DNA of 64,000 nt from Bacteroidia bacterium (GCA_033763015.1 JANRLA010000128.1:1562-65561); one strand, 5' to 3'; counted from the stretch's first letter, positions 3,003-23,963 are shown. Program-made: numbers and translations. The notes: generated by a model not told the origin, from the letters alone.

Positions 3003-3034
3003 ATTAGCAGTGCAATTACGCACAAAACTCGCAG

Positions 3035-3634: not shown

Positions 3635-3649
3635 AAAATCCCGTCAGTA

Positions 3650-3665: not shown

Positions 3666-3715
3666 GTTCGTGTGGTGGGAGGGGTGCGTACTTCGGCCCA
3701 AACCTCAACACACAC

Positions 3716-4192: not shown

Positions 4193-4244
4193 CCTGTAAA
4201 ACCTACAACCTGGAACCCCTTTTACCTCTCCATACCAACCTCAT

Positions 4245-6239: not shown

Positions 6240-6266
6240 GCGCGTTGTGTGTAGTGTAATTAACCG

Positions 6267-6301
6267 GGCGCGGGGGTGGCCCCTACGGCCGCCCCCCCGC
6301 C
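6267..6301 (+). other. GC-rich stem-loop between nosZ and downstream gene
   Basis: GGCGCGGGGGTGGCC-cctac-GGCCGCCCCCCCGCC, about 15-bp stem with one G-U and one mismatch. No T-run, so more likely an intra-operon stabiliser or attenuator than a terminator. Confidence 0.35.
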
Positions 6302-6327
6302 TGGTGGGTAGCTAACCCCCCTTACGT

Positions 6328-6954
6328 ATGAAACCCCTTTCCCGCAGCCTCATTGCAGTGGCTGCCCTGAGCCTGGCCGCGCTCTACGTAGTGCCTATCT
6401 GGCGCATCGACCTCTCCGCCCCCCAGTACCCCGAAGGACTGGGCATGAAAATCTGGATTGACCACCTGAGTGGCCAAATTGATCAAATCAACGGCCTGAA
6501 CCACTACATCGGCATGGCCGTCATTACCGAAGACCAATTCAAGGAATTTCTATACATGAAGTACCTGGTGGCAGTGCTCATTGGGCTGGGCCTCGTGGCC
6601 GCCGCCTGGAACAAGCGCTGGCTGGTACTCACCTGGACTACCTCGATAGCCGCGATGGGCGTACTGGCCCTTTACGACATGTACCAGTGGGGCTACAAGT
6701 ACGGCCACGAGCTCGACCCCACCGCTGCCATCAAGGTGGAGGGCATGGCCTACCAGCCGCCGCTCATTGGGTTTAAGCAACTGCTCAACTTCGGCGCGTG
6801 GTCGCTGCCCGATATCGGGGGCATCCTGCTGTGGCTGGCCCTACTGGTCGGCGCGGGCGTATGTTTCTACGAGTGTTACCTGCGGGGCCGTAAGCAGCGG
6901 CGCAGCCAGACAACCCAAACCACCGCCACCCGTGCGACCACACTTCTGGCGTAA
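6328..6954 (+). CDS. nosB: NosB-like transmembrane protein (gene immediately downstream of clade II nosZ)
   Basis: 208 aa, about 4-5 hydrophobic helices. The position matches the nosB slot described for clade II nos clusters. Confidence 0.55.
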   Translation: MKPLSRSLIAVAALSLAALYVVPIWRIDLSAPQYPEGLGMKIWIDHLSGQIDQINGLNHYIGMAVITEDQFKEFLYMKYLVAVLIGLGLVAAAWNKRWLVLTWTTSIAAMGVLALYDMYQWGYKYGHELDPTAAIKVEGMAYQPPLIGFKQLLNFGAWSLPDIGGILLWLALLVGAGVCFYECYLRGRKQRRSQTTQTTATRATTLLA

Positions 6955-7381
6955 CCTGGCAGTAGCCCTCACGGCGCTAGGCACTGCGTGTGCGCCCAAG
7001 GCCCCCAGCATTGACTACGGGCACCTGGAGTGCAGCCACTGCCGCATGACGGTGGTAGACGATCAGTTCGGGGCGCTGCTCCTGACGACCAAGGGTCGGC
7101 AGTACGCCTTTGATGCGCCCGAGTGCCTGGTGCCGTTCCTGGAGTCGGGCACCGTGCCAACGGGCGAGGTGAGAGCACTCTACGTGTCAGACTACGCTGC
7201 GCCCGGCGCGCTCCTCGAAGCCACCGGCGCGTTATACCTCTACAGCCCCAAGCTGCAAAGCCCCATGGCCGGTAACGTGGCCGCCTTCGCCACCGAAGAT
7301 GCCCGGCACCACGTACATCATACCCTGGGTGGTACCTTGCTCACATGGCCCGAGGTGCTCGAGCGGTTTTCTAAGCGGTAG
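6932..7381 (+). CDS. nosL: NosL copper-chaperone lipoprotein
   Basis: ORF-track start 6767 overlaps the upstream gene by 188 nt. In-frame GTG at 6932 gives a signal peptide, (M)RPHFWRNLAVALTALGTAC. Body contains HCRMTV...AFDAPEC...SPMAGNVAAF, typical of NosL. Confidence 0.7.
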   Translation: MRPHFWRNLAVALTALGTACAPKAPSIDYGHLECSHCRMTVVDDQFGALLLTTKGRQYAFDAPECLVPFLESGTVPTGEVRALYVSDYAAPGALLEATGALYLYSPKLQSPMAGNVAAFATEDARHHVHHTLGGTLLTWPEVLERFSKR

Positions 7382-7383
7382 CT

Positions 7384-8649
7384 ATGGCACGGCAATTTCT
7401 CTGCCTGGTGCTCCTGCTGGGGTGCCTGAGCGCCGGTGGGCAAACCACCTGGCACGTGGGGCCCACGCAGCCCCACACTTCGCTGGCCAACACCCTGGCG
7501 CGGGCCCAGCCCGGCGACAGCATTGTGGTGCACCCCGGCGAGTACTGTGAGGGCAACTACCGCATCACGACCCCCCGCCTGGTGCTCTCGGGCCGAGGCT
7601 ACCCGGTGCTCGATGGCCAGGGCAAGGTCGAAATCCTCTCGGTACAGGCCGATAGCGTAACCATTGAAGGGTTTGTGGTGCGCAACAGCGCCTACGGTAG
7701 CCTGTCGGACTACGCCGGTATCAAACTGGCCGCCAGCCGGGGCCATACCGTACGCAACAACCGCCTGGAGGGTACCTTCTTCGGCATCTTTCTGGGCGAT
7801 GTAACCGGCGCCGTTATTACCGGCAACGAGGTGACCGGCACCCAGCTGGAGGAGAGCAAATCGGGCAACGGCATCCACCTCTGGAAGTGCCGTGGCATCC
7901 ACCTGGAAGGCAACACCGTACGCGGCCACCGCGACGGCATCTACCTCGAGTTTGCCACCGCCAGTACCCTGGTGGGCAACCGCAGCGAGGGCAACATCCG
8001 GTACGGGCTGCACTTCATGTTCTCGCACGACAACGCCTACACCGAAAACACCTTCCGGAACAACGGGGCCGGCGTGGCCGTGATGTACACACGCAACGTG
8101 CGCATGGTGCGCAACCGCTTCGAGGCCAACCGCGGCACAGGAGCCTACGGCCTGCTGTTAAAGGATATTTCGGACAGCGAGGTCACCCAGAACATTTTCG
8201 AGGACAATACCTCGGCCATCTACCTCGAGGGCACCAACCGCGTGCGGGTGCACGAGAACCTCTTCCGGCGCAACGGCTGGGCCGTGCGGCTGCTGGCCAA
8301 TTGCGCCGACAACAGCTTCGTCCACAACGACTTCATCGGCAATACCTTCGATGTCTCGACCAATGGCAACCTTGTGTTGAATCTCCTAAGCCAAAACTAC
8401 TGGGACAAGTACCGTGGCTACGACCTGGACCGCGACCGCATCGGCGACGTGGGCTACCGGCCCGTAAGCCTTTACTCCGTCGTCATCGAACGCATGCCCT
8501 TTGCCCTGGTACTCATGCGCAGCCTGTTGGTGGGCCTGTTGGACCAGACCGAGCGGCTCATCCCCTCGCTCACGCCCACCGACCTGATTGACGAGCGGCC
8601 GCTGCTCGTGCCCTTTGGCCCCCTCACCGGGCAGGAGGTAGGCGCGTGA
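7384..8649 (+). CDS. nosD: NosD periplasmic beta-helix protein
   Basis: Signal peptide. Repeated NNxxxGxxxGI beta-helix units (VRNNRLEGTFFGIFL, GNGIHLW, RDGIYLE, RYGLHFM). Position upstream of nosF/nosY. Confidence 0.9.
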   Translation: MARQFLCLVLLLGCLSAGGQTTWHVGPTQPHTSLANTLARAQPGDSIVVHPGEYCEGNYRITTPRLVLSGRGYPVLDGQGKVEILSVQADSVTIEGFVVRNSAYGSLSDYAGIKLAASRGHTVRNNRLEGTFFGIFLGDVTGAVITGNEVTGTQLEESKSGNGIHLWKCRGIHLEGNTVRGHRDGIYLEFATASTLVGNRSEGNIRYGLHFMFSHDNAYTENTFRNNGAGVAVMYTRNVRMVRNRFEANRGTGAYGLLLKDISDSEVTQNIFEDNTSAIYLEGTNRVRVHENLFRRNGWAVRLLANCADNSFVHNDFIGNTFDVSTNGNLVLNLLSQNYWDKYRGYDLDRDRIGDVGYRPVSLYSVVIERMPFALVLMRSLLVGLLDQTERLIPSLTPTDLIDERPLLVPFGPLTGQEVGA

Positions 8650-9359
8650 TCCGGGTCGAGGGCCTTTCGAAGCGCTACGGGAAGCTATGGGCCCTACGCG
8701 GGGTGAGCTGCTCGTTCCGGCCCGGTGAGGTGACGGCCCTGATCGGCCCCAATGGCTCGGGCAAAACCACGCTCATCAAGTCTATCCTCGGGGCCGTGCG
8801 GCCCACCGAGGGCAAACTATGGTTGGGCGACACGCCCATTGGCACCGACCCGGCCTACCGGGCCCGCCTGGGCTACATGCCCCAGATAGGCCGCTACCCT
8901 GATAACCTGACCATCGGGCAACTGCTCGACATGATGCAGGACCTGCGGGGCCAGCCCACGGGGGGGTGCGACGACCGGCTGGTGTCGGTCTTGGGCATCG
9001 ACCGCCAGCTGGGCAAGAAGCTCGGCGCCCTTTCGGGGGGTACCCGCCAGAAGGTGAGCGCCATCCTGGCGTTCCGCTTCCGGCCCGAGGTACTCATACT
9101 CGACGAGCCCACGGCGGGGCTAGACCCCGTCTCGGCCGAATCCATCCTCGAGGCCGTGGGGCAGGCCGTGGCCGCAGGGGTGGCGGTGGTCATCACCTCG
9201 CACATCATGAACGAGGTCGAGGCCGTCGCCAACCGCGTTACCTACCTGGCCGAAGGGCGGCTGCTGTTCAGCGAAACGGCCGCCGACCTTCAGGCCCGCA
9301 CCCAGGAAACGCGGCTCAGTGCCGCCATTGCCCACTATGCCAAAGCGTGTCATGGGTAA
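8646..9359 (+). CDS. nosF: NosF ABC transporter ATPase
   Basis: Walker A GPNGSGKTT, signature LSGGTRQK, Walker B VLILDEPTAGLD. 4-nt overlap with nosD. Confidence 0.9.
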   Translation: MIRVEGLSKRYGKLWALRGVSCSFRPGEVTALIGPNGSGKTTLIKSILGAVRPTEGKLWLGDTPIGTDPAYRARLGYMPQIGRYPDNLTIGQLLDMMQDLRGQPTGGCDDRLVSVLGIDRQLGKKLGALSGGTRQKVSAILAFRFRPEVLILDEPTAGLDPVSAESILEAVGQAVAAGVAVVITSHIMNEVEAVANRVTYLAEGRLLFSETAADLQARTQETRLSAAIAHYAKACHG

Positions 9360-10119
9360 GATATTAAAGTATTCGCTGGTCAACCTGCTGCGTAGCCGCG
9401 TGGTGCTGGCCTACACCGTGTGCCTCTTCGCCATCACTACAGCGCTGTTTGCCCTGGAGTCTGACCCCAGCAAGGCCCTGGTGAGCCTGAGCCAGGTGGT
9501 ACTCAACGTGGTGCCGCTGGTGTGCCTGCTCTTCACCGCAATCCAGTACTACAACTCGCTGGAGTTCACCGAGCTGCTGGTGGTGCAACCCCTGCGGCGG
9601 CGCACGATTCTGCTGGGGCAGCTACTGGCCCAGTGGGTGGCGGTATCGTTTGCCTACCTGGTGGGGGTGGTACTGCCGCTCTCGGTCTTCAGCCCGGGGG
9701 CCAACAGTGTCATGCTTTCGGCCTCGGGGGTGCTGCTGGGGGCCATCGGGGTATCGCTGGGCTTCCTCATCGCGCTGGCCAACCGCGACAAGGCCCGGGG
9801 CATTGGCGTGGCCATCCTGCTGTGGCTAGTGTTTGTGGTGGTGTACGATGGCCTGCTGCTGCTTGCGCTGCTGCTCTTGGCCGACTACCCCATCGAGCCC
9901 TGGGTGGTGCCCCTGGCCTCGCTCAACCCCATCGATCTGGCGCGCATCCAGGTTATGCTGCGCATAGACCTGGCGGCGATGCTGGGCTACACCGGGGCGG
10001 TGTACAAGCAGTTTTTCGGCTCGCTGGGTGGCCTGCTGTACACCTTTGGCCTGCTGCTTGTCTGGCTGGTCTGGCCCGCCTGGGTAGCGCTGCGACTGTT
10101 CCTGAAGAAGGACTTCTAG
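9352..10119 (+). CDS. nosY: NosY ABC-2 type permease
   Basis: Six hydrophobic segments. ATG at 9352 overlaps the nosF stop (ATGGGTAA). ORF-track start 9319 is also possible. Confidence 0.85.
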   Translation: MGKILKYSLVNLLRSRVVLAYTVCLFAITTALFALESDPSKALVSLSQVVLNVVPLVCLLFTAIQYYNSLEFTELLVVQPLRRRTILLGQLLAQWVAVSFAYLVGVVLPLSVFSPGANSVMLSASGVLLGAIGVSLGFLIALANRDKARGIGVAILLWLVFVVVYDGLLLLALLLLADYPIEPWVVPLASLNPIDLARIQVMLRIDLAAMLGYTGAVYKQFFGSLGGLLYTFGLLLVWLVWPAWVALRLFLKKDF

Positions 10120-10511
10120 AGGCCCGCGGTCGCCTCGGGGGCCACTTTGTGGTAGATGACGCGGGCAATGTGCTCGGCGCGCTGGTAGGCCTCCTCGGCT
10201 TTGGGCCCTGCGAAGTGCGCCTCGAGCGTGCTGCGCCAGCGCGCAAGCCAGTGCCGAAAGTGGGCCTCGGACATCGGGATGCGCTGGTGCAACTGCAGGT
10301 GCTTTTCGAGGGCGTTGCCACTGAAGCCCGGCGTGCCCAGCAGCACGGCGCTCCAGAAGAGCACCATACGCGGAATGTGGGTATCCCAGTTAAAGTGGGC
10401 GGGGTCGGCAAAAAAATGCCCAATGACCGGGTCGTGCGGCATCTGCGCGTAAAACGCCTTGACCAGCACGTCTACATCGGCCTCGGTGCGGATGTCAGGC
10501 AGGCTCGCCAT
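10116..10511 (-). CDS. Truncated haemoglobin (group III-like globin)
   Basis: Start taken at MASLPDIR. Pattern VLVKAFY...FWSAVLLGTPGFSGNALEKHLQLH...HF..WL resembles group III trHb such as Campylobacter Ctb. Confidence 0.65.
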   Translation of the reverse strand: MASLPDIRTEADVDVLVKAFYAQMPHDPVIGHFFADPAHFNWDTHIPRMVLFWSAVLLGTPGFSGNALEKHLQLHQRIPMSEAHFRHWLARWRSTLEAHFAGPKAEEAYQRAEHIARVIYHKVAPEATAGL

Positions 10512-10866
10512 GTGCCGTAGGGTCAGGTTTGGGCTTGGCTTGCGAGAGGAGGCACAGGCTTTTTTCAAGGGCCAGCACCCAGTGCACCACCCCCGCAGGG
10601 ATGTCTACGGTCTCGAGCGCCGAGAGGTTGACTGTGCGCCTGGCCTCGCTGTACACCACAGCGCCGCGCAGCACGGTGAGCCGACTAGGCCACTTGGCCG
10701 CGTGGTCTTTGAGCTCCATGCCCTCGCCGAAGGCAAAGGCAACCAGGTTGAAGCCTTCGCCGCTGTGCAGCGACTTGGCCACGGGCCGCGGGTGGCTGCC
10801 GACCTCGGCCCAGGCTTCGTGCAACGGGTGTGCGGGTTCCATACGAGCGGTCATGGGGTACTTCAA
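10495..10866 (-). CDS. Cupin domain protein
   Basis: 123 aa, small beta-barrel-like sequence (GEGMELKDHAAKWPSRLTVLRGAVVY...IPAGVVHWV). Overlaps the downstream trHb gene by 17 nt, so probably one operon. Confidence 0.65.
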   Translation of the reverse strand: MKYPMTARMEPAHPLHEAWAEVGSHPRPVAKSLHSGEGFNLVAFAFGEGMELKDHAAKWPSRLTVLRGAVVYSEARRTVNLSALETVDIPAGVVHWVLALEKSLCLLSQAKPKPDPTAHGEPA

Positions 10867-10892
10867 ACTTCTGCTTCAGCGCACCAAAAGTT

Positions 10893-10908
10893 TATGATGT
10901 ATGTCAGG
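10893..10908. promoter_or_regulatory. FNR/CRP-like half-conserved box (site C) upstream of cupin-trHb operon
   Basis: TATGATGTATGTCAGG shares its first 9 nt with site A (TATGATGTA). Core TGAT-N4-GTCA. Lies 27-42 nt upstream of the cupin start 10866 on the minus strand. Confidence 0.3.
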
Positions 10909-10982
10909 GTTTGGGGGTTTTGTAACGTGCCATTTTCTGCCTGTGGTGATGTTGCGGCCCACGACAACCCCACCGTACACAA

Positions 10983-11085
10983 CTAGCGGGTCGCCACCGG
11001 CGCTGCGCGGAGCCGGTACCACTGGCGCAGGGCATCGCCGATTTCGTGGGGGCGGTCTTCTTGCAGGAAGTGGCGCGCCCGGTTT
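10983..11085 (-). pseudogene. 3' fragment of an alpha/beta-hydrolase (haloalkane-dehalogenase-like) gene, truncated by the CRISPR array
   Basis: Minus-strand translation NRARHFLQEDRPHEIGDALRQWYRLRAAPVATR* matches the typical C-terminus G-H-[FY]-LQED-x-P-x-x-IG-x-x-[IL]-x-x-W of HLD-type hydrolases. It begins exactly at the last CRISPR repeat, and no upstream part of the gene is present. Confidence 0.5.
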
Positions 11086-12276
11086 GCTTCAATCCTCATC
11101 CGGCCCGAAGGCCGGATGCTACTTTGTATTTTGGGCCATGCCGAGAAGGGAGTACGGGTTTCAATCCTCATCCGGCCCGAAGGCCGGATGCTACTACTTA
11201 CGGCCAGGTTCCAGGCAATCCGGAAATACGTTTCAATCCTCATCCGGCCCGAAGGCCGGATGCTACAATGGCCCCGACGTGTCGAGGCTTCAAACGTTTT
11301 TGTTTCAATCCTCATCCGGCCCGAAGGCCGGATGCTACGAGGCGTGTGGCTGGCACTACCAGACCAACGAGGTGTTTAAATCCTCATCAGGCCCGAAGGA
11401 CGGATGCTCCGTGGCCAAAGAAACCGATGTGCGCATTGAGTGCGGTTTCAATCCTCATCCGGCCCGCAGGCCGGAAGCAACGTTGCGCCAACACTCTTGC
11501 TCTGGCAGGGCGGCGGCGTTTCAATCCTCATCCGGCCCGACGGCCGGATGCTACTGGGAGCGCTTTGGGGGTCATTCGGTCGGCTCAGCGTTTCAATCCT
11601 CATCCGGCCCGAAGGCCGGATGCTACGCTACTGAGCGCGTCGGCAGCGGTGCCGCTCAGGTTTCAATCCTCATCCGGCCCGAAGGCCGGATGCTACGCGT
11701 TGCCGGTAAAGCGGTAGTAAGTTTTGCCCGCGTTTCAATCCTCATCCGGCCCGAAGGCCGGATGCTACTGCTGATCTGCGTGGCCTCGCCGATGTACACC
11801 GTGTCGTTTCAATCCTCATCCGGCCCGAAGGCCGGATGCTACCCCTGCATCGACAGGTTGCCTACCAGCTTCTTGTGTTTCAATCCTCATCCGGCCCGAA
11901 GGCCGGATGCTACGTAAGGAGCTCGACCAAGTGAGCGAACAGCTACAGGGTTTCAATCCTCATCCGGCCCGAAGGCCGGATGCTACTCATGGCGGTGGTT
12001 GCATGGTTCCAGTACAAGCAATTTCAATCCTCATCCGGCCCGAAGGCCGGATGCTACGGGGCGTTTTGCAGGCTCGACCACCACCAGCCGTAGTTTCAAT
12101 CCTCATCCGGCCCGAAGGCCGGATGCTACCTTCATCCGCTACGAAGCGGTTACCTATGACCCCACGTTTCAATCCTCATCCGGCCCGAAGGCCGGATGCT
12201 ACACGCCTGCCTCCTGGGTGGCTGTGCTTCGATTGCTCCGTTTCAATCCTCATCCGGCCCGAAGGCCCGATGCTAT
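11086..12276 (-). CRISPR. CRISPR array, 17 repeats of 37 bp, 16 spacers of 33-37 bp (type I-C-like repeat)
   Basis: Plus-strand repeat is GTTTCAATCCTCATCCGGCCCGAAGGCCGGATGCTAC. Repeats start at 11086, 11158, 11230, 11302, 11374, 11445, 11518, 11590, 11660, 11732, 11806, 11877, 11950, 12021, 12093, 12166 and 12240. The minus-strand form GTAGCATCCGGCCTTCGGGCCGGATGAGGATTGAAAC ends in ATTGAAAC as I-C repeats do, so transcription is inferred co-directional with the cas genes. Confidence 0.97.
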
Positions 12277-12311
12277 CAATCCCAGGATTTCAAAGAACTG
12301 GTTATCTGGGT

Positions 12312-13235
12312 TTAGCCCACGTAGCGGTGCAAGGTGATGCCCGCCGGTAGGGTCTGGTCGTCTACCCACACCTCGTAGTCGGCAAACTTGCGCCCAACCT
12401 CCACCCCCGGCTTGCGCTGCACCCGGATGCGCTCGAAGAGCGCGTAGGCCGGGGCGTTGCCCAGCGCCGAGGGGTGCTCAAAGACGTAGAGGCCTCGGGT
12501 ATTCATCTGGCCACGGGCAGCGCTCCGGTCGTGCTCAAACATGTTGCCCAGGGCCTCCCAGAGCAGGCCCAGGTCGTCGGGGCCAAAGCCGGTCTGTCGG
12601 GCCAGGTGAGCAGACACAAAGCCGTGGCCCAGGTACAGGCCGTAGGGCACGGTGTACTTGCGGCCCATGGTGCGGTTATCGCCGTCTTGGGCTGCGGCTT
12701 CTTTCTCGGTGGCCACGGCCATGCGGGTAATGGCGTGCTCAGCGGCAAAGATGGGGTCTACAGACCGGGCGAAGGTGAGCTGTACGGGCCCACGTACCTG
12801 CCCTGCATTTACGCCCGTAGACATGACCGCACCGAAGGTGCGTACGTCGTAGAAGTTCTTGCACATCCAGGCCCGTGCGTCGGCGACCTTGTCGCCACCC
12901 TTGCGCTTTTTCTCGTCGGGGTTCTTCTCGTTTGCTTTGAGCTGGTCTTCGGCACCAATGCCCACGTAGGCCCGCTCGTGCTGCTTGTTCAGGATGCCCT
13001 TTTCTTTCACGTAGATTTCATACCTGGGCTGCATGAGCGGGCTTGTGACCTCGGTTTGGTCTTTGGTGAGGGCGATGTAGTTGCGGATTTTGCGCTTCAG
13101 GCACACATCGGTCACGATACCGAGGCCGGTTTCGGGGTCCATGCGGGGCAAATTGCCCGCGTCGGGGTCGCCGTTGGGGTTACCGTCGGTGACATCGAAC
13201 AGGAGGACAAAGTCGTAGCGGTGGTCGAGGCTCAT
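12312..13235 (-). CDS. cas7: Cas7 (Csd2), type I-C
   Basis: N-terminus [25 protein letters not shown] is typical of Csd2/Cas7c. 4-nt overlap with cas8c. Confidence 0.9.
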
Positions 13236-14974
13236 ACTGCTTCGGGGGTAGAGGTGGTGGGTTCGGTGGCTTTGGTTGGGTAGAAGTCTTGTTGTTGGTG
13301 GTAGTAGCCAATGGCAAACGCACCCTGGTCGGCCAGCGATAGGCGGGCGGGGAAGGTGCCTTGAAACTGACTTGCGATTTGAGCTACCAGTTTGCGCCGG
13401 TTGACGGCCTGGCCCGTACGGCCCTGCTTTTCTAGCTTATCTACGTGGTGCCGGTGGCGGGCAATGAGCGTAGCGAAGACAGCCTGGGGCGTACTGCTTG
13501 CCGCGCTGTAAAAGGACTTGAGGGTATCGCCCATACTGGCCTCCACTTGTGTCTTTTCGATGACGGCGAAGAGGCGGCCTAACTGGTAGCCGATGTTGGG
13601 GTGTTCGGGGTCTAGGGCCACAGGAAAGCGGGGGTTTGGTGAACGGGAGAAGCGAAGACGACGGTTGAGGTAGGCCTTGATGAGTGCCGCGCGTGGGTAG
13701 GTTGCCTTTTGCTCTGCCTGGTTACGGCGGACGGCGGCCTGCAACAGGGTTTCGGGTAGGGGTAGGCCCGCCAGAACCGTGCGCAGGGTATCGCCTGCCA
13801 AGTTGGGCGGGATGTTTTCGGCCTTCCCGAGGGTAGCGATACTGGTTAGGAGCCGAAAAAGAGAGGGGTAGCCAAACTTGTCGCGACCGACCATATCTAG
13901 GTCATCGAACCACCCCGCGATGCGTGTACCGGTCTGGGCAACGGTACCTACGTGCCAAAACCGGATAGCGATGCGCGAAGCATTGGGCGATAACCCGAGT
14001 ACATAGAAGGTGTCGTTGCCATCGTCGGCGACGTACGCGCCGTTTTGGATACTGCCCAGTAGGCTCCGAATGGCTGTGGTGCGGGCGTCGGGGTTGTCTT
14101 TTTCAGGCTCAGCAAACAGGCTAGCAAAGTTGCCCTCCAGTGCACTGCCTTGCTTCGACCAAAAGACCGTACTGGCATCGCCCACTTGCATCCGTTGGTT
14201 GCTTTTTTTGTCGAGCAGAAGGTTTAGCGCAGTGGTGTATTTGAATACCGCCGAAGCGCCAACCGGAGCGTTGGCGCCCTGCTCTTTGCCGTACGAGGTA
14301 AATGCTGGTAGGTTGAACGAAACAATGTTTGCCCCAGACGACTGGCTACCCCACACCCCTTTGATAGAGGGATGCAGCCGTTCGGTTGGCTCGACCTGCC
14401 CAGTTACCAGACAGACACCTGTGCTAGAAACTTGCGTGTCGCCATTTGATTGGATAGCAGCGACGACAGCTGGCCGAAGGCTCACCAAGTCGGCACTGTC
14501 GCCTGCCAAGCGAAAGCTCACATTGGCGTTTGTCTCAACAATTTCATGTACCAGATGAGGCGTGGCCGATTGCCAATTTGGGTTTTCGAGAAACCGTAGA
14601 ACGGCCAGGACGCCCTCGTCGTGGGCTACGCCCGCCAGTTCAGTGGCAATCCGTTGCCGGAAGGCCTCGAATTGGAGGTGCGTTTTCGTTGGATTTCCTT
14701 TGATGTCTACGCTCAGCGCATACTCGGCTTTATCCCACAGTAGGTTGGGATCAATGGCCGAGGTACGACCTACATCTTGGGGTACCAAGAAGCGCCGCGC
14801 CACCAACTTTTTTCCTTCAGGTGTGCGGGTGTCTTCAATGTGTAGTAAAGACCCATCGGGGTTCAAGACCAGAATGAAGGGTATCGCTTTCCACTCAAAG
14901 CCGGGCGGTGCAACTTCGGCGCTGCCGGTAGCGGTCTTGCGGTCGTAGTACTCGACCAATGCTTGAAGTATCAT
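13232..14974 (-). CDS. cas8c: Cas8c (Csd1), type I-C large subunit
   Basis: Start taken at [12 protein letters not shown] (typical Csd1 N-terminus), giving an ATGA overlap with the cas5 stop. About 580 aa. Confidence 0.88.
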
Positions 14975-15636
14975 CTGCGCACCTCCTCGCTGTTCCAAGC
15001 AGGTACCGTAAGTGTTCCATCCACCAAGTGCGCTCTGAAGAACAGCGGGGCAGGCCCCTCGGGCGCCGCGAAATCCAGGTCGTAGAGCATGAAACCCAGG
15101 TCGCGTGTTTCGGCTATTGGGGTAACGGGATCTTCAACGGGGTCAACTAGCCGGAAGTGCGCTGGGAACTCGCGGCAGCCCAAGTACGGCTGGTGAAAGC
15201 ATTGCCCAGCACCCGCCCGGCGTTCAAACATCTCCCAAAACTTTGGGGCCGAATTGCCCTCGCTCGCAGTAGAAAGCACCTCAAGACCTGCGTACAAACG
15301 GTAGCGAACGTCGCGTAGTAAAAGCCCTGCCCGCTGCTGGCGTTCGTCCTCGATGAAAATGGATAGGCTGCCTCGACCAGCGTTCATGGCTTTGGTCGCG
15401 TTGTCGACCGAGAGTTTGGTCGCAACTTCATTTCTGCGAATGCTGAGCCAATGAATGGGCTGTAGCACGTCAATTCTCTGAACGTGCCATCGAATGGCAG
15501 GCTTCCAGAGTATGGCTTCGAAGATGGCTCTGGCAGCCGAGGGTGTTATGACATCGTAGCTGACACGCTCTACTTTCATTTCGGGTCGCGTGAAGCAGGC
15601 GTAGTCGCCATGCACTTCAAGGCAGTAGGTTTTCAT
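14971..15636 (-). CDS. cas5: Cas5d, type I-C (pre-crRNA processing subunit)
   Basis: MKTYCLEVHGDYACFTRPEMKVERVSYDVITPSAARAIFEAILWKPAI is the canonical Cas5d N-terminus. Confidence 0.9.
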   Translation of the reverse strand: MKTYCLEVHGDYACFTRPEMKVERVSYDVITPSAARAIFEAILWKPAIRWHVQRIDVLQPIHWLSIRRNEVATKLSVDNATKAMNAGRGSLSIFIEDERQQRAGLLLRDVRYRLYAGLEVLSTASEGNSAPKFWEMFERRAGAGQCFHQPYLGCREFPAHFRLVDPVEDPVTPIAETRDLGFMLYDLDFAAPEGPAPLFFRAHLVDGTLTVPAWNSEEVRR

Positions 15637-15638
15637 GT

Positions 15639-17918
15639 TCAGGCCAAAAGTTCGGAAGGACGGATTTCAGAAGTGGGTAGCACAAGCCCGATTTCGGCAT
15701 CATACCGGCGGGCCAAATACAGGCCTTCGCGTACTTCGACATCGCCAACTTGTTGCATCGCCTGTAGTAGGTGTTCAGGAACGGAGACCGTGTACCGCTG
15801 CAATGCACGGTACGCCGCACGGTCGGTACCCTCCCGTTCGAGTCTCGAAAGCCACTCAAACACTGGGCTTTCTGCTTCGTTGGGCGGATTGTAGGGCACT
15901 ACGATGGGTACGCCATCGTCCGCGATCAGCTTAAACCGTTTCGCAATGGTTCTGAACGGAATTTCACCCCGGCTAGCATCCCGCTGCTCAAGGGTGAGAA
16001 TAGCGTGTTTATCTAGCTCACCTTTGCTGTACAAGCGATCGAAGTAGCGCCGGAAGGATTCGGGCGCCAAGGGGTCGGTCACCTCTCCCGATAGCAAGAG
16101 CTCACGTGCGGTGTCTTCACCTTGCCTGAGTAACCCTGGTGGGGCAGGGGCTTCGGGGTTAAAGACAGTAACGGTGCCCAGCGTGTCAAGCAGGCCCTCA
16201 CGGTTGCAACGACCTGCTGCCTGGGCAATGGAATCCAACCCTGCCATGGCCCGAACGACCACCGGGAAGTCGAAATCAACCCCCGCTTCGACCAGTTGGG
16301 TTGCCACCACGCGCAAGGGTTGGGAGTCACCGGCCCGTCGTTTCGACAATCTTTCTTTTATGTTGGCAATAACGTCTGTGCGGTGCTGGCCGCACATAAG
16401 GGCCGATACATGCACCCGGCCACTCTCAGCTGGAAGCAGGTTGTAGAGTGTACGGCAGTCGGCACGTCGGTTTACGATGACGAGTACACAGCTCTGCGCC
16501 AAGAGGTAGTCTGCAACTTCTTGCCAAGTACTCGTTATGCACCAGTCTTTCAAGGGCTGAACCGAAACGCGCTTTAACCGCCCTGCCAGTGCCATAGGTG
16601 CCTCGGCGATCTCGCGCACGTGTGTCAGCCCCCTACGCACCAAATGCCCGAAGGCATCACGCTTTTCCTCCAACGCAGGCTGGGTCGCAGTACAGAGTAG
16701 TACCGTTACACCGTAGTGCCAAGTGAGCAGTTCTACCACGTGCACAATTGGGTCGAGAAACTCACGGGGCAGTTGTTGAGCCTCGTCGAGGACGATGACG
16801 CTGTTTACAAGGTTGTGCAGCTTGCGGCACCGGCTGGGCTTGGCAGCAAAGAGCGATTCAAAGAGCTGTACGTTGGTGGTGACCGTAAGTGGGGCATCCC
16901 AGTTCTCAGCCCAAAGGCGATTCTGAGGGGTCTCTCGCGCGGGATCAAGGTTGCTGTGGTGCTCCAGAACCGCATCAGGCCAAGTACGAAATACGTTTCG
17001 GAAAACATCGGCGGTCTGCTCGATGATACTAGTGAAAGGAATCGCATACACGACGCGTCGCTTTTGCCACTTCACAGCATGCGTTAGTGCAAACGCAAGG
17101 CTAGAAAGCGTTTTCCCCCCACCGGTGGGGACAGTTAATGAAAATAGACCAGGCTTCAGCTCTGCAGCTGAGCGGCAACTTGATAAGACCTCAGAGCGTA
17201 GGTTGGTTACCCCGCTTGGAGTTGCCTTCAGGGTGAATGAATCGAGGTGACTCCTAAGGGCCTTCTCCAAGTCCATTACCGATGCTCTTGTCTGCGCGCG
17301 CTGGGTCGTTCGCGTTGGGTCCATAAAGGACTCCGTGTTCAAGAAGTCGGCATCTACCAGGCAAGAAAATAGCATCCGTTGCCAAAGTGCTAGGCCAGCA
17401 GCGCCACCAGGGAGTTTGGGTTCAGGCTGCGGCGATTGCAGCCAATCGGGTGCGTGTGTGCCTAGGCCCAGCAGCGACTCCTTCAGCTCTTCGGTTGCAG
17501 CGGCCAGCCGCACCTGAAGACAGCTTTTGCCGCCATCGGAACCCTCGACCGTATCAGGTGCCCAATCGGGTAGCCCAGCATGATGGCCCGCGATGCAGTA
17601 CGCCAGCAATCGTCCATATGGCCCAAACCGGTTGACAGCATGTAGGGCGCCTGCTGTGCTATGGGGTAGTTTCCCGACGCTACCCTCCAAGTGCGCTTCG
17701 GGGTCGTGCCCTGACGCAAACCGAATCCGTCGCTGAAACGCTTGTTGGTATTTGCCCAGGTCGTGCCAAAGACCTGCCAAACGCGCCCAATCTGTAGCTC
17801 CAAAGGGTTCGGCGAACTGCGCGGCGAGTTCCCCAACATCGCGCAGGTGGTTGTTAAGCGGATGGACCAGCCATTCGCCCGAATCTAGCTCTCGAATATG
17901 GGCGACTGGCTTCTGCAT
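15639..17918 (-). CDS. cas3: Cas3 HD nuclease-helicase
   Basis: HD motif LAGLWHDLGKY. Helicase motif I VPTGGGKT, motif II VIVLDEAQQL. 759 aa. Confidence 0.92.
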   Translation of the reverse strand: MQKPVAHIRELDSGEWLVHPLNNHLRDVGELAAQFAEPFGATDWARLAGLWHDLGKYQQAFQRRIRFASGHDPEAHLEGSVGKLPHSTAGALHAVNRFGPYGRLLAYCIAGHHAGLPDWAPDTVEGSDGGKSCLQVRLAAATEELKESLLGLGTHAPDWLQSPQPEPKLPGGAAGLALWQRMLFSCLVDADFLNTESFMDPTRTTQRAQTRASVMDLEKALRSHLDSFTLKATPSGVTNLRSEVLSSCRSAAELKPGLFSLTVPTGGGKTLSSLAFALTHAVKWQKRRVVYAIPFTSIIEQTADVFRNVFRTWPDAVLEHHSNLDPARETPQNRLWAENWDAPLTVTTNVQLFESLFAAKPSRCRKLHNLVNSVIVLDEAQQLPREFLDPIVHVVELLTWHYGVTVLLCTATQPALEEKRDAFGHLVRRGLTHVREIAEAPMALAGRLKRVSVQPLKDWCITSTWQEVADYLLAQSCVLVIVNRRADCRTLYNLLPAESGRVHVSALMCGQHRTDVIANIKERLSKRRAGDSQPLRVVATQLVEAGVDFDFPVVVRAMAGLDSIAQAAGRCNREGLLDTLGTVTVFNPEAPAPPGLLRQGEDTARELLLSGEVTDPLAPESFRRYFDRLYSKGELDKHAILTLEQRDASRGEIPFRTIAKRFKLIADDGVPIVVPYNPPNEAESPVFEWLSRLEREGTDRAAYRALQRYTVSVPEHLLQAMQQVGDVEVREGLYLARRYDAEIGLVLPTSEIRPSELLA

Positions 17919-18059
17919 TAGTCTACGCTACTATTGGTATAACCAAATTAGAGCTCCCAGCGGTACGCCTGCAACGCCCGCACATCCGCCCCAAGGTTCG
18001 AGAGTAACGACCGTGGGGGTACCGGGTGGCCCTTTTTTCTGGTACAGTAGCTTGCCCCT

Positions 18060-18587
18060 ATGCGCAAGCTGGTACTCTACACCGCCCTTAGCCTTGATGG
18101 CTATCTGGCCCGCCCCAACCACGCCATCGACTGGCTGCCAGAAAATGACACGGGCGAAGACTACGGCTACACTGCGTTTTACGACACCATCGGTGCGGTG
18201 GTTTACGGGCGTAACACCTACGACTTCATGCGTGCCCAGGGCTTCTACGCCTATGAGGGTGTGCCCAACTACTTGTTCTCTAGCGCCTACAGCGGCGATC
18301 TGCCCCCGAACGTCCTGCACGTAAACCAGCCCCTGGCCGCAGTGGTGGGCCCACTGCTACAGCAGGAAGGAAAGAACATCTGGCTGGTTGGGGGCAGCGG
18401 GTTGATACGCGAAGCGCTTGAGGCCCAACTTCTTGCCGAGCTTCACCTACAAACCATCCCCGTACTCATCGGCCAGGGTATTTCGTTGTGGTTACCCCGT
18501 AGCGGCGATGTGCGGCTGGTCCTTAGGTCGTATACAGCCTACCCCGATGGCGTTGTGGCCACGGTGTACGGGTGTGTATACGGCTAG
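18060..18587 (+). CDS. Dihydrofolate reductase family protein (RibD C-terminal domain-like)
   Basis: MRKLVLYTALSLDGYLARPNHAIDWL and the later IWLVGGSGL are typical of this family. Confidence 0.75.
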   Translation: MRKLVLYTALSLDGYLARPNHAIDWLPENDTGEDYGYTAFYDTIGAVVYGRNTYDFMRAQGFYAYEGVPNYLFSSAYSGDLPPNVLHVNQPLAAVVGPLLQQEGKNIWLVGGSGLIREALEAQLLAELHLQTIPVLIGQGISLWLPRSGDVRLVLRSYTAYPDGVVATVYGCVYG

Positions 18588-18599
18588 TACCTTCGCCCC

Positions 18600-19262
18600 A
18601 TGCCCGGCTACACCCTCGCCCCCAGCATCCTCTCGGCCGATTTTGCCAACCTACAGGCGGCCCTGGGCCTCATCAACCGCTCGGCAGCCGACTGGGTGCA
18701 CTGCGACGTGATGGACGGCCACTTTGTGCCCAACCTCACCTTCGGCATGCCGGTGCTGCGCGCCCTGCGGCCCCACACGCCCAAGCCCCTCGACGTCCAC
18801 CTCATGATCGAGGCCCCCGAGCGCTACATCGATGCGTTCGCCGACGCCGGGGCCGATATCCTCACCGTCCACTACGAGGTGAGCCCCCACCTGCACCGCA
18901 CCCTGGCCGCCATCCGCGCCCGCGGCATGCGCCCCGGCATCAGCCTCAACCCCAGCACACCCGTCGAGGTGCTTACCGACATACTGCCGGCAGCCGACCT
19001 GGTGCTCATCATGAGCGTCAACCCCGGCTTTGGCGGCCAGCAGTTCATCGAGCAGACCTACAGCAAGCTGCGCCGCCTGCGCGCCCTGGCCGATGCCCTG
19101 AACCCCGGGCTGGTCATTGAGGTCGACGGCGGGGTTACGCTCGCCAACGCCGGGGCGCTCCTAGCCGCCGGGGCCACTGCCCTGGTGGCAGGCAACGCCA
19201 TCTTTGGCACACCCGACCCCGTGGCCACCATCGGCCAGTTCAAGGCCATTGGGCCTGAATAG
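18600..19262 (+). CDS. rpe: Ribulose-phosphate 3-epimerase
   Basis: LAPSILSADFANL, HCDVMDGHFVPNLTFG, DVHLM, MSVNPGFGGQ. Confidence 0.92.
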   Translation: MPGYTLAPSILSADFANLQAALGLINRSAADWVHCDVMDGHFVPNLTFGMPVLRALRPHTPKPLDVHLMIEAPERYIDAFADAGADILTVHYEVSPHLHRTLAAIRARGMRPGISLNPSTPVEVLTDILPAADLVLIMSVNPGFGGQQFIEQTYSKLRRLRALADALNPGLVIEVDGGVTLANAGALLAAGATALVAGNAIFGTPDPVATIGQFKAIGPE

Positions 19263-19265
19263 AGG

Positions 19266-20048
19266 CTACCAGACCAGCTTTTCTTTGTTCAAGAAGGCCG
19301 TGATGCCGGCCTTGCACTCGTCGGTCATGCGGGCGTGGGCGTTCATCTTGGCCGCGAAGGTGAGGGCATCTTTCAGGGGCATGTCCTGCACGTCGGCCAG
19401 TAGGCGCTTGGTGAAGTCGAGGCTGCCGCCGGCGTTTTCCTGGCAGAGCTTTTCGGCAAAGAGCTGGGTGTGGCGCTCCAGCGTTTCGGGGGGCACAATC
19501 TGGGTGATGAGGCCCAGCTTGCAGGCCTCGGGCGCATCAATGAGGTCGCCGGTGAGCAGTAGCCGCCGGGCATGGGCTTCGCCGATTTTGCGCACCAGGA
19601 AGACCGACACCAGCGCGGGCAAGAAGCCAATCTTTACCTCAGTGTAGCCAAACCGGGCCTCGGGCACGCAGAACGCGAAGTCGCATACCGTTACCAGCCC
19701 GCAGCCGCCCGCAATGGCCGCCCCGCCCACCTGGGCGATGACCACTTTGGGGTGCCGGTAGATGGCCAGGTACAGCTCCATGAGGTGGGTGCTGTCGGCC
19801 AGGTTGTCGGCCAGCGTGTACTCCTGCAGCTTCTGTAGGAACTCGAGGTCGGCCCCGGCGCTGAACACCGTGCCGTTGGCCCGTAAGACGATGACCTTCA
19901 CGGCGGGGTCGGCTGCAAACTGCGCCAGGGCGTCTTTCAGCTCGCTGACGGTGGGGTAGTTCAGCGCGTTACGCTTCTCGGGCCGGTTGAGCGTGATGTA
20001 CCCGATGCGTTCGCGGGTTTCGGTGAGGATGTACTTGTACGCCTGCAT
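19266..20048 (-). CDS. Enoyl-CoA hydratase/isomerase (crotonase) family protein
   Basis: ITLNRPEKRNAL, VFSAGADLEF, GGAAIAGGCGL. Confidence 0.88.
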   Translation of the reverse strand: MQAYKYILTETRERIGYITLNRPEKRNALNYPTVSELKDALAQFAADPAVKVIVLRANGTVFSAGADLEFLQKLQEYTLADNLADSTHLMELYLAIYRHPKVVIAQVGGAAIAGGCGLVTVCDFAFCVPEARFGYTEVKIGFLPALVSVFLVRKIGEAHARRLLLTGDLIDAPEACKLGLITQIVPPETLERHTQLFAEKLCQENAGGSLDFTKRLLADVQDMPLKDALTFAAKMNAHARMTDECKAGITAFLNKEKLVW

Positions 20049-20087
20049 ACCCAGAGAAAAAGCTTAGCCCCACAAGATGCACCCATT

Positions 20088-21584
20088 TCACGCGATCTGT
20101 AGCACCTCGGGCCCGCGCCCGCGGCGGTAGTACAGCCACAGGCCCAGGCCCACCAGGGCAGCCGCCCCAAGCCCGGCTTGCCAAGGTGCAACGGCTAGGC
20201 CCGTACGGTAGGCCCCCGGCCACTCCGCCACGGCCCGGTTGAGGCCCAAGAGTAGCGCCGAGCTCTGGCCTGCCAGGTACACCAACGCAGGGCCAATAAG
20301 GGGTACGCCCCCCAGCGCCAGGCACCCTACGCCCAAGAGCAGCACCAACGAGCTGAGCGGTACCGCCACGAGGTTCACCGCGAGCCCGTACGTCGAGAAG
20401 GCGCCAAAGGCCAGTAGTTGGAGGGGCAGCGTACCCAGCTGCGCCCAGCAGCCCAGCGCCAGCAGCTCGGCCGGGTAGCGCAGCCACCCCGGGCGGCCCT
20501 CCAGTGCCGTAGCCACAACGGGCATACCCAACAGGATGGCCGTCACGGCCGCGTAACTAAGCTGGAACGAGAGGCTCTCGAGCACCCAGGGGTTTACAAC
20601 TACTTGGGCTAAAAAGCTGGCGCCCAGTAGGTTAAGTGCAACTGGCTTGCGCTCAAGTAGTAACGCCCCCCAGGCCAGTACCACCACCAGCGTGGCCCGC
20701 ACCACCGAGGGGCTGCCGCCTGTAAGTGGGATGCACAGCACCAGCAGCCCAAGCCCTGCCACTGCCCGTAGGTACCAGCCCCGGCCCCGCCAGCGGCCCA
20801 AGCCCAGGCCCCAACTGAGCACATAGACCACCACCGCGATGTGCAGGCCCGACACCGCCAGCAGGTGGGCCGTGCCGCTGGTCAGGAACGCGGCCCGGTC
20901 TTCGGGCGCTAGGCCCCCGCGGTCGCCGAGTACCAGGGCCCGTAGCAGGGCGCTACTGGGCGCCGCCAGGCCCAGGTCTGCCAGCCGGGTTGCCGCACGG
21001 GTACGCAGGCCCAGCACACCGGCGGGTGGGGCCAGGGCCACGAGGCTGTCGGCCCTGAGGGTGAAAGAAAACCCCTGCCGCGCGAGGCTGGTCCGGTACG
21101 GCACGTTTCGGATGGCTCCCAGGTCGCGCAGGGTGCCCACCACCCGCAGGCGGCTGCCCTGCAGCAGGAGCCCCTCGCCGGGTAGGGCGGCGTGGTAGAG
21201 CACACCACGGGCGCTGCTGGGCACTGCGCTATGCCCGTCGGCCTGCAGGCTATCGAGCGTCAACAGGCTGTAGTAGCCGTAGGGCGTAGGGCGGGCATCC
21301 TGGGCTAGGGTCCCCCATACGGTTACGTGCGCCGCCACGGGTGGCACCACCGGTGGCTGTTGGCGCACCTGTAGGCCTACGCCTACCCCCATGGCCACTG
21401 GGCTTACCCAGGCAAAGGCCGGTAGCGCCCAGCGCTTGCGTAGGGCCAGTAGGGTTAGCAACCCACCCCCCGAAAGCCCCAGCGCCCACCCTGCCGGCAG
21501 GCAATAGCCCACCACCAGCGCCAGCGCTAGCCAGAACAGCGGGGCCTGGCTTGGCAGGGGTTTGGCACGCAGTTTGGAACTCAT
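20088..21584 (-). CDS. comEC: ComEC/Rec2 family competence membrane protein (no C-terminal metallo-beta-lactamase domain)
   Basis: Polytopic. Competence-domain motif FLTSGTAHLLAVSGLHIAVV. 498 aa. Confidence 0.8.
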   Translation of the reverse strand: MSSKLRAKPLPSQAPLFWLALALVVGYCLPAGWALGLSGGGLLTLLALRKRWALPAFAWVSPVAMGVGVGLQVRQQPPVVPPVAAHVTVWGTLAQDARPTPYGYYSLLTLDSLQADGHSAVPSSARGVLYHAALPGEGLLLQGSRLRVVGTLRDLGAIRNVPYRTSLARQGFSFTLRADSLVALAPPAGVLGLRTRAATRLADLGLAAPSSALLRALVLGDRGGLAPEDRAAFLTSGTAHLLAVSGLHIAVVVYVLSWGLGLGRWRGRGWYLRAVAGLGLLVLCIPLTGGSPSVVRATLVVVLAWGALLLERKPVALNLLGASFLAQVVVNPWVLESLSFQLSYAAVTAILLGMPVVATALEGRPGWLRYPAELLALGCWAQLGTLPLQLLAFGAFSTYGLAVNLVAVPLSSLVLLLGVGCLALGGVPLIGPALVYLAGQSSALLLGLNRAVAEWPGAYRTGLAVAPWQAGLGAAALVGLGLWLYYRRGRGPEVLQIA

Positions 21585-21697
21585 TCAACCGACACCCACA
21601 CCCCTGCCCAGGCAACCGTTTGGGTATCGCGGGGCGGGAACGTAATTTTACACGGTTACCAGCGGTTATCTTACACACCAAACTGAACTGACTGTCA

Positions 21698-22495
21698 TTG
21701 CCACCGGGTATGGATACACGCACACGTGGGTCGGGTAAGGTTACTTCGGGTATACGCCGGCTGGCCCTGGGGGTTGTGGTGGGGTGTGCACTGGCCACCT
21801 CTTCACTGCACGGTCAGAAGCTTTCGTTCGCGCGCACCTTCGACAACATCGGCTCGCTGGTCGATGTCAGCAAAGAGTTTAAGTACCAGCCGCCCCAGCA
21901 GCTCATCGCCGTCAAGTTCACCGGCCGTGGCGAGCTGCCCATCGATACGCTGTACGTGATCGTAAAAGACATCAATGGGGTAGCCGGGCGCTTTTACATG
22001 CAGCGCAGCAAGCGCAACCCCTCTGAGGCCAACGCGGTCATCAAAATCAAAACCGATGGCATCTACCGGGTGTACGTCTACAACCCGGCACGGCGTGTGC
22101 GCCCCATCTCGCACGGCATTGTATACCTGACCAGCGCCAGTTACCCTACCAAAGAGGCGCTTCTGGAGCGGCAGCGCAAAATCTTGGTGCAGCGGGGCAT
22201 TATCAAAGATGTGAACAACCCCAACGGTGCCGATCCCTTTGCCGAGGGCAACACCGGGGGTAACGACACGCCGCTTGACCAGTCTATTGACGACGAGTTT
22301 GCCGATGCAGGGCTTTCGCTTGAAGACGACATCGAGGGCGATTTTGCCGACGACCTGGCCGATTTTGACGAAGAGTCTATTGGCGAGGACGACCTGGAGG
22401 CCGATATCCTGCCCGAAGACTTTGCCGGCGAGTTTGAATCGTTTGATGATTTGGACGAAGAATTCGACCTCGAATTCAACATCGAAGATTTTTAG
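21698..22495 (+). CDS. Hypothetical secreted protein with extremely acidic C-terminal tail
   Basis: Signal-like LALGVVVGCALATSSLHG. The C-terminal ~80 aa are almost entirely D/E/F/L (DDEFADAGLSLEDDIEGDFADDLADFDEE...). Start codon uncertain. Confidence 0.5.
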   Translation: MPPGMDTRTRGSGKVTSGIRRLALGVVVGCALATSSLHGQKLSFARTFDNIGSLVDVSKEFKYQPPQQLIAVKFTGRGELPIDTLYVIVKDINGVAGRFYMQRSKRNPSEANAVIKIKTDGIYRVYVYNPARRVRPISHGIVYLTSASYPTKEALLERQRKILVQRGIIKDVNNPNGADPFAEGNTGGNDTPLDQSIDDEFADAGLSLEDDIEGDFADDLADFDEESIGEDDLEADILPEDFAGEFESFDDLDEEFDLEFNIEDF

Positions 22496-22510
22496 CCCCC
22501 TTCAGAGCGC

Positions 22511-23227
22511 CTAGCGCTTCGGCAGCACTGCGCTGAACACGTCGCGCACCAGGCCTTCGGCCTTCCCGACCGGGTCTTTCCGTATCGCAGCTTCTTGGCG
22601 ACCAAGCGTCGCAAAAAAGCCCTCCAGCGCCTTCCCAACTACGTACTCGCCAATGTCGGTCGGCAGGGGTTTACCCGAGGCCGTTAGAAAACTGAAGCGG
22701 TTGTAGGTCGTGGCGAACTTCTGCCAGCTCTGCTGTAGCCCCACGGCCTGCATTTGCTGCGCGACCACAGGGCGGTACAGTGCCAGAAGCTGGTCTTGTG
22801 TGCGGCTTTGCAGCAGCCGGGTAGCGGCCACCGAGTCGCCCTGTAAAATGGTAAGCCCGTCGGCAATGGTTAGGCCCTTAATGGCCTCCAGGAAGATGGT
22901 ACGGGTTTGGCCCTGGGCTGCCGCAGCCTCTGCGGCCCGGTTCATTTTCAGAAGCACATCGTCTACCACGGCCCGGCCGGTACGCCCGCCTTTGGTGCGC
23001 AGCAGCTCGGCGGCGGCCTGGGCTTCGGGCGGCAGCAGGATTTTCACCAGTGCATCGCTGAAATAGCCGTCTTTGGCACCCAGTTGGCCCGCGGTACGGT
23101 TCGTGGCCAGCTCCAGCGCGCCGCGCAGGGCATCGGTGGTTTGGCTTTGGCTAAAGTTGAACTGTGCCTGGGCAGCCACGGCTACGCTCAGTGCGGCAAC
23201 TACCCCAGCAAACCGAAACCCGCGCAT
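22511..23227 (-). CDS. DUF4197-like secreted protein
   Basis: Signal peptide. TDALRGALELATNRTAGQLGAKDGYFSDALVKILLPPEA matches my recollection of the DUF4197 signature. Confidence 0.6.
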   Translation of the reverse strand: MRGFRFAGVVAALSVAVAAQAQFNFSQSQTTDALRGALELATNRTAGQLGAKDGYFSDALVKILLPPEAQAAAELLRTKGGRTGRAVVDDVLLKMNRAAEAAAAQGQTRTIFLEAIKGLTIADGLTILQGDSVAATRLLQSRTQDQLLALYRPVVAQQMQAVGLQQSWQKFATTYNRFSFLTASGKPLPTDIGEYVVGKALEGFFATLGRQEAAIRKDPVGKAEGLVRDVFSAVLPKR

Positions 23228-23230
23228 GGC

Positions 23231-23896: not shown

Positions 23897-23963
23897 AGGC
23901 TACGGAGAGAAGTCTCCGTAAAACTACGTACAATTACCTAATAGCAAACGCCTTGCTTTGCGC

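Follow-up and report, generated by a model that had tools for sequence, protein, structure and literature searches.

How does a type I-C CRISPR-Cas locus come to carry its array directly behind cas7, with no room between the two for the genes of spacer acquisition, and what could such a locus still do? The question is raised by positions 11086-17918 of a 64-kb stretch of DNA (64,000 nt, hereafter the window) from a metagenome-assembled genome (MAG) of an uncultured Bacteroidia bacterium (GCA_033763015.1, JANRLA010000128.1:1562-65561), in which cas3, cas5c, cas8c, and cas7 are followed by a short, co-oriented array. Comparison with related loci indicates that a recent deletion probably removed ~2 kb of cas4-cas1-cas2, together with all but ~30 nt of the leader, from a canonical I-C locus, leaving an interference-only cassette.

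We first consider what is present. A model's reading of the sequence alone (the original prediction) had described four intact interference genes, and this was borne out by full-length open reading frames (ORFs) and by subtype-specific NCBIfam and Pfam models (Table 1); its coordinates and counts for the cas7 stop, the gap, repeat 1, and the array were all correct on re-reading. Cas3 scored 101.7 bits with the NCBIfam model cas3_HD (cut-off 43.45) and 102.9 bits with cas3_core (cut-off 102.45). Its HD motif occupies residues 52-53, and residues 266-270 form a Walker A motif (GGGKT); the DExH box (motif II) of Cas3 was not found by a simple regular expression. Nearly the whole of Cas5c (residues 4-212) aligns to the Cas5 chains of solved I-C complexes such as 8g9t, 8dex, and 7kha (E 6e-68), structures in which the catalysis of Cas5c has been characterised, and the protein resembles the endonuclease that cuts precursor CRISPR RNA (pre-crRNA) in type I-C. 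No Cas6 family was found among the scanned window ORFs. The genes are closely coupled, with a 2-nt gap between cas3 and cas5c (TGA-AC-ATG) and ATGA overlaps at both cas5c/cas8c and cas8c/cas7. The cas8c start is the ATG at 14974, which overlaps the cas5 stop; the ORF list of the original prediction had used a TTG at 14998. Within cas8c, the in-frame ATG at 13534 and the GTGs at 13546 and 13621 could serve as internal starts for Cas11c. Cas7 is identical to an NCBI protein labelled "MAG: Bacteroidia bacterium." The G+C content is 56.6-57.2% in cas3, cas5, and cas8c, 62.6% in cas7, and 62-63% in the flanks. Judged on sequence, the locus is type I-C by all effector-module criteria; the adaptation module and leader that it misses are typical of complete loci but not defining.

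We next consider what is absent from the DNA covered, which for adaptation genes comprises these 64 kb of the genome and ~20-kb stretches of two contigs from a sister MAG described below. The original prediction had found no cas1, cas2, or cas4 in the 64 kb, and three kinds of scan agreed with it. Searching the window by tblastn with Cas4, Cas1, and Cas2 from two relatives gave a best E value of 0.03. A six-frame search of the window with hidden Markov model (HMM) profiles of Cas1, Cas2, and Cas4, the first of these built from 120 I-C Cas1 sequences, gave a best E value of 0.8. Finally, Pfam annotation of ~37 further ORFs, together with precomputed Pfam annotation of the flanks, returned housekeeping genes and no cas1, cas2, or cas4.

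To place this arrangement, a comparison with related strains had been proposed as a way to the undeleted locus, and it yielded one with the full module. This locus, L125 (Logan SRR22746113 contig 41249), has a Cas7 in the same 90% cluster as that of the window and is arranged cas3-cas5c-cas8c-cas7-cas4 (206 aa)-cas1 (344 aa)-cas2 (96 aa)-179-bp leader-repeat. Its proteins are 98% (Cas5), 99% (Cas8c), and 98% (Cas7) identical to those of the window, with a synonymous divergence (dS) of 0.03-0.07 and a ratio of nonsynonymous to synonymous divergence (dN/dS) of 0.15-0.18, and its repeat equals the window consensus at 37 of 37 positions. Nucleotide homology between the two runs from ~105 bp upstream of cas3 to the cas7 stop codon and ends there, which supports the predicted deletion of cas4-cas1-cas2 and leader; the genomic context of L125 is unrelated to that of the window. 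Four more distant loci (L002-L005), with Cas7 proteins 80-83% identical, tell the same story: cas4 begins at or overlaps the cas7 stop, and contigs that extend far enough go on to cas1, cas2, and a leader with a 37-nt repeat like that of the window. The cas4-cas1-cas2 module was seen in L125, L004, and L005, and a JGI contig (L127) carries cas2, a leader, and an array with a repeat identical to that of the window. As L125 and L002-L005 are canonical, the canonical arrangement would be ancestral and that of the window derived.

One feature of L125 itself deserves mention. Its complete cas3-to-cas2 operon is followed by a single repeat without spacers (10582-10618) and then by low-G+C genes with no Pfam match; this may be a truly empty array or a collapse of the de Bruijn graph.

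The original prediction had stated that there is no leader. This stands in that there is no leader of functional length and no integration site, but the 35 bp between cas7 and repeat 1 are probably a remnant of the distal leader. They align to a conserved internal leader motif, AGTTCTTTGAA (AGTTC(C/T)TTGAA plus flanking similarity), in the leaders of L125 and L004, where the motif lies 45-63 nt after the cas2 stop and follows closely on a conserved inverted repeat, GCGCGAAC...GTTCGCG. The alignment has moderate rather than strong statistical support: the local alignment score was reached by 25 of 500 and 14 of 500 shuffles, and MAFFT placed the segment in the same column. The repeat-proximal ~105 nt of the relatives' leader is missing from the window, and the leader-repeat junction common to L125 and L004, ATTAGCGG(C/T), is absent upstream of window repeat 1. 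Loss of the leader would then have involved either two deletions or one complex event.

The intact leaders show a further element. Those of L125 (10405-10581), L004 (3392-3567), and L127 each hold two copies of GGTTCGCG, the first of which pairs as an inverted repeat with GCGCGAAC immediately after cas2. The window lacks this pairing, which may act in termination or as a site for protein binding.

Beyond the gap, the array has the features of its subtype. In type I-C, Cas5c cuts at the 3' base of the repeat hairpin and leaves a crRNA with an 11-nt 5' handle. The window repeat, which ends ...GGATTGAAAC, fits this pattern, folding (-18.9 kcal/mol) into a 9-bp stem and UUCG loop followed by an 11-nt tail, AGGAUUGAAAC, the predicted handle ending ATTGAAAC. 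Rfam assigns 12 of the repeats to CRISPR-DR9 on the minus strand. The two substitutions that the original prediction had counted in repeat 1, at the head of a 16-spacer array, were confirmed as G1A and C9G; the latter places a mismatch in the 9-bp stem and changes the minimum free energy to -14.6 kcal/mol, vs -18.9 kcal/mol. Two other repeats have variant ends, GAAAT in repeat 4 and GAAGC in repeat 17. No other CRISPR arrays and no tRNAs were found in the 64-kb window. A scan of a genome collection with the degenerate 3' end of the repeat, GCCGGRTGAGGATTGAAAC, used a pattern so broad that unrelated phyla matched, and this genome was not among the matches listed.

The same repeat was also met in an unrelated setting. 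On JGI contig Ga0233425_10001405 (L128, 2655-2739), a chromosomal mini-array in an AT-rich genome consists of the canonical 32-nt I-C repeat (GTCGCTCCCCGCGCGGGAGCGTGGATTGAAAC), 15 nt, and an exact copy of the 37-nt window repeat, so that two I-C repeat types surround a spacer that is too short. It has ABC-transporter genes on its upstream side and genes for YqeY and PilZ on its downstream side, and may represent either the relic of an array or a cr-like regulatory RNA.

Could the junction between cas7 and the array simply be a mis-join or collapse, with cas4-cas1-cas2 present there in the real genome? The source is a MAG, arrays are hard to assemble, and the window differs structurally from its sister MAG upstream of cas3. 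That sister assembly (GCA_964440845.1), however, contains the same junction. Its contig 10 (L001) matches window positions 2337-18023 at 99.4-99.97% identity and has the same succession of cas7, 35 bp, and mutated repeat 1, followed by the same 16 spacers in the same order; the cas genes differ by 2 substitutions in 6 kb. The two assemblies are not free of blemishes. L001 has an N10 gap and an error-rich contig end after repeat 4, and error-like patches occur in both assemblies. In the array, 19 differences fall within ~360 bp (11350-11709) covering repeats 11-13, and others at 12008-12026; almost all in these clusters are G<->T or to-C transversions, those in the first almost all G<->T. Another patch of divergence, at 2343-3787, is biased to transitions, as is usual. 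The "degenerate" repeats 11-13 of the window are thus probably consensus errors from assembly or sequencing noise, not decay. At the junction itself, 35 bp of unique sequence and a uniquely mutated repeat 1 agree base for base between independent assemblies that differ elsewhere by single-nucleotide changes and a rearrangement, and no repeated sequence lies between cas7 and the array to cause collapse. An assembly artefact is therefore very unlikely, and we assign it a close to negligible probability.

A deletion that is real could nonetheless be made good from elsewhere in the genome, by a Cas1-Cas2(-Cas4) set that sits beside an array with compatible repeats and updates this one in trans. 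Other loci without adaptation genes are documented to be supplied in this way, among them a type VI-B locus that uses type II-C machinery (PMC8092290), and the sequence inspected here is confined to the 64 kb and the sister-MAG stretches named above. Against it, the leader-repeat junction at which new spacers would enter is missing, repeat 1 is mutated, and spacer content and order are the same in two assemblies. In addition, no Cas1 more than 74% identical to that of L125 was found among 5.8 billion proteins, a database that holds the Cas7 of this MAG. We consider adaptation in trans highly improbable. An array frozen by the deletion fits both the identical spacer order and the lack of a Cas1 above 74% identity to that of L125.

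How, then, might the cassette work? Transcription of the operon would start in the ~105 conserved bp that precede cas3, where TAATTTGG at 17950 is a weak, relaxed match to the Bacteroidetes -7-like motif. In a 150-nt bin that spans the cas3 start (17940-17791), identity to L125 is ~84%, vs ~55-77% over cas3. Between cas7 and the array, the minus strand showed no terminator-like site, and as neither a terminator nor a promoter was found there, the simplest model is a read-through pre-crRNA: transcription would run past cas7 into the array, making the pre-crRNA a 3' extension of the cas mRNA, with a possible contribution from a weak promoter in the leader remnant. Read-through fits the missing terminator, though such a fit is not evidence for it. 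Cleavage by Cas5c at the 3' base of the 9-bp UUCG hairpin in every repeat would give crRNAs with the 5' handle described above. Cas5c, Cas8c, Cas7, and internally translated Cas11c would form Cascade, with Cas3 recruited to targets flanked by a protospacer-adjacent motif (PAM). No spacers would be added, as Cas1-Cas2-Cas4 and the leader-repeat integration site are gone, and the memory would stay fixed at 16 spacers.

The edges of the cassette mark an unstable site in the genome. Upstream of cas3, the window is rearranged relative to the sister MAG at a 5-bp microhomology: positions 18019-28587 match contig 1 of GCA_964440845.1 (L126), and the cas side (12021-18023) matches contig 10 (the matching sites are 5154-5213 in L001 and 9925-10001 in L126). 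The rearrangement joins the cas locus to a ribD-like/rpe region, and the corresponding neighbours in the sister MAG are a Pyr_redox_2 gene (contig 10) and a sigma-70 gene (contig 1). The GTACC junction runs through the hairpin that terminates an rpoD-like gene; in L126 this hairpin is intact. L001 and L125 have a further 59 bp of upstream sequence in common beyond what is left in the window.

At the trailer end, the last repeat abuts the remnant of a gene for a haloalkane-dehalogenase-family protein. Its translation, NRARHFLQEDRPHEIGDALRQWYRLRAAPVATR (…RHFLQEDRPHEIGDALRQWY…), had 38 matches in PDB, all to the C-terminal ~20 residues of haloalkane dehalogenases or related alpha/beta-hydrolases (best E 0.0012); Pfam gave no match on the 33 aa. 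The remnant starts at the conserved His of a GxHF(L/I)QED motif, which we take to be the catalytic His, and the other ~270 dehalogenase codons were not among the ORFs scanned. Insertion of the whole cassette into a dehalogenase gene was entertained and rejected as a simple insertion, because in L001 163 bp separate the cassette from the gene upstream of it, too few for the ~270 codons that are missing.

Within the operon, identity to L125 switches at the cas3/cas5 boundary, from 55-77% over cas3 to 97-100% from cas5 through the end of cas7. Over cas3 (L125 2812-5094), the proteins are 70% identical and dS is saturated. A switch this sharp indicates recombinational exchange of cas3 or of the Cascade block in one lineage; a comparison with L002 as an outgroup, meant to show which lineage had swapped cas3, gave 62% vs 71% across no more than 163 aa and did not point to either. 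CRISPR-Cas systems are well known to shuffle their modules. The observation can be taken further, since the block is ~99% identical in two unrelated contexts, with or without the adaptation module, and is joined to a cas3 only 70% identical. On that basis, cas5c-cas8c-cas7 plus the repeat might be a mobile recombination unit whose adaptation-less form is selected and streamlined, with the ~30-nt leader motif acting as an array promoter or processing signal. We regard this wider reading as doubtful.

Returning to the deletion and the interference-only cassette it would have left, several observations weigh against a cassette still in use. The comparison of the spacers with phage, plasmid, and self sequences that the original prediction had called for was run and gave no targets. 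Neither the window nor the retrieved relative loci held a self-target, the sole match in INPHARED was 27 nt long (E 0.9) and at chance level, PLSDB gave no match, and exact 23-24-mers of five spacers had no match in IMG/VR. These searches found no protospacer for any spacer from which a PAM or recent use could be read. Scans for sigma-70 and Bacteroidetes (TAnnTTTG) promoters showed nothing recognisable in the 3' end of cas7 or in the 35 bp. The mismatch in the stem of repeat 1 may impair processing of the first crRNA, and the rearrangement at 18019-18023, which removed sequence beyond -105 that is kept in L001 and L125, could affect cas expression. The deletion, lastly, is so recent that intact ORFs cannot separate genes still selected from genes not yet decayed, and so do not prove continued selection.

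These points bear on the remaining alternative, in which the locus is a non-functional relic, unexpressed, unselected, and in the course of being lost, its ORFs still intact for no other reason than that the deletion is recent. It draws on three independent lesions, namely the loss of adaptation genes and leader, the truncated dehalogenase at the trailer, and the rearrangement 105 bp upstream of cas3, as well as on the degenerate repeat 1, the mutated repeats 11-13 of the window, the lack of a detected promoter before the array, and the lack of spacer matches to known phages or plasmids. Several of the data do not favor it. All four ORFs are full length with their ATGA coupling preserved, dN/dS relative to L125 is 0.15-0.18 for cas5, cas8c, and cas7, the two assemblies are set apart by only 2 substitutions over the 6 kb that the cas genes span, and the differences from L001 in repeats 11-13, as clustered G<->T transversions, look like assembly or sequencing error. 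On balance, a relic is unlikely, yet it is the alternative that we take most seriously.

Table 1. Coordinates of the cas genes, the array, and the features that border them, counted from the first letter of the window
Feature	Position	Strand	Description
cas3	15639..17918	minus	759 aa; HD nuclease and superfamily 2 (SF2) helicase; Pfam Cas3_HD, DEAD, Cas3-like_C_2
cas5c	14971..15636	minus	221 aa; TIGR01876 190 bits vs cut-off 85
cas8c/csd1	13232..14974	minus	580 aa; TIGR01863 527 bits vs cut-off 219; PF09709 E 5e-170
cas7/csd2	12312..13235	minus	307 aa; TIGR02589 393 bits vs cut-off 182
Gap from cas7 stop (12314-12312) to repeat 1	12277..12311	minus	35 bp; probable distal-leader remnant; identical in L001
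CRISPR array	11086..12276	minus	17 repeats of 37 nt (GTAGCATCCGGCCTTCGGGCCGGATGAGGATTGAAAC, minus strand), 16 spacers of 33-37 nt
Repeat 1, degenerate	12240..12276	minus	ATAGCATCGGGCC...; substitutions G1A, C9G; same in L001
Retained upstream region	17919..18023	minus	105 bp; also conserved in L125 and L001; presumably holds the cas operon promoter
Strain-specific rearrangement junction	18019..18023	.	5-bp microhomology GTACC, 105 bp upstream of cas3
Haloalkane-dehalogenase-family alpha/beta-hydrolase 3' remnant	10983..11084	minus	33 codons plus stop; abuts last repeat

The wider neighbourhood of the locus in the window includes a nos cluster, a ribD-like gene, rpe, clpB, mfd, a uvrA-like gene, and serS. 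The only recombinase in the window is a XerC/D-like integrase at 60680-61669, 43 kb from the cas locus. A phage or plasmid origin of the locus was rejected: the flanks hold nos genes, the ribD-like gene, rpe, clpB, and mfd, and a pattern scan of IMG/VR found no Cas7 relative. Two other regions of the window stand out. On the plus strand at 40123-44407, a 687-aa protein with WD40 repeats and a caspase domain (Peptidase_C14) is followed by a 760-aa WG-repeat protein; this pair, which has no relation to the CRISPR locus, may serve in conflict or in programmed cell death. Beside mfd, an island of 47% G+C (35500-36540; window mean 63%) contains a 235-aa ORF (35823-36530, plus strand) with no Pfam match and is probably foreign DNA.

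The locus offers a clean, datable example of a I-C locus losing its adaptation module, with little import beyond annotation. Its use lies in the near-identical undeleted sister locus, which lets the end-points of the deletion be mapped, and it also illustrates modular exchange of cas3 vs the Cascade genes. Were it shown to be active, it would represent a "fixed-memory" I-C system found in nature, a compact four-gene operon with a co-transcribed array in a layout like that of engineered minimal I-C editing cassettes. The locus is an ordinary example of how CRISPR loci erode. Partial loci that lack adaptation genes and have mutated repeats and arrays that do not change are well documented (PMC12669027, PMC8092290). 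In type VII systems, substituted repeats have been taken as a sign of infrequent spacer uptake (PMC12669027). A literature search for frequency statistics on adaptation-less I-C loci found only general statements.

How does the locus compare with known systems? Type I-C-derived CRISPR-associated transposons (CASTs) are mentioned in PMC12669027. Like them, the window combines I-C Cascade genes with a short array and no adaptation genes, but it has a cas3 with HD and Walker A motifs. Most type I CASTs lack cas3 and reside inside Tn7-like elements with tnsA/B/C and tniQ. No transposase or TniQ families were found among the window ORFs scanned, and a CAST origin was rejected because cas3 is present and no Tn7 genes were found. 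With canonical I-C systems (Dvulg; Desulfovibrio vulgaris, Bacillus halodurans, and Neisseria lactamica), the locus shares the cas3-cas5c-cas8c-cas7 order and the co-oriented downstream array; it differs in lacking cas4-cas1-cas2, in having 35 bp in place of a leader of functional length, and in its 37-nt repeat with a 9-bp UUCG hairpin. Model I-C systems have a 32-nt repeat. With adaptation-less loci (many of type III, IV, VI, and VII, and partial type I loci), it has in common an effector module and an array without cas1 and cas2. Here, the absence would be no fixed feature of a subtype but a recent, lineage-specific loss in a subtype that normally carries its own adaptation genes.

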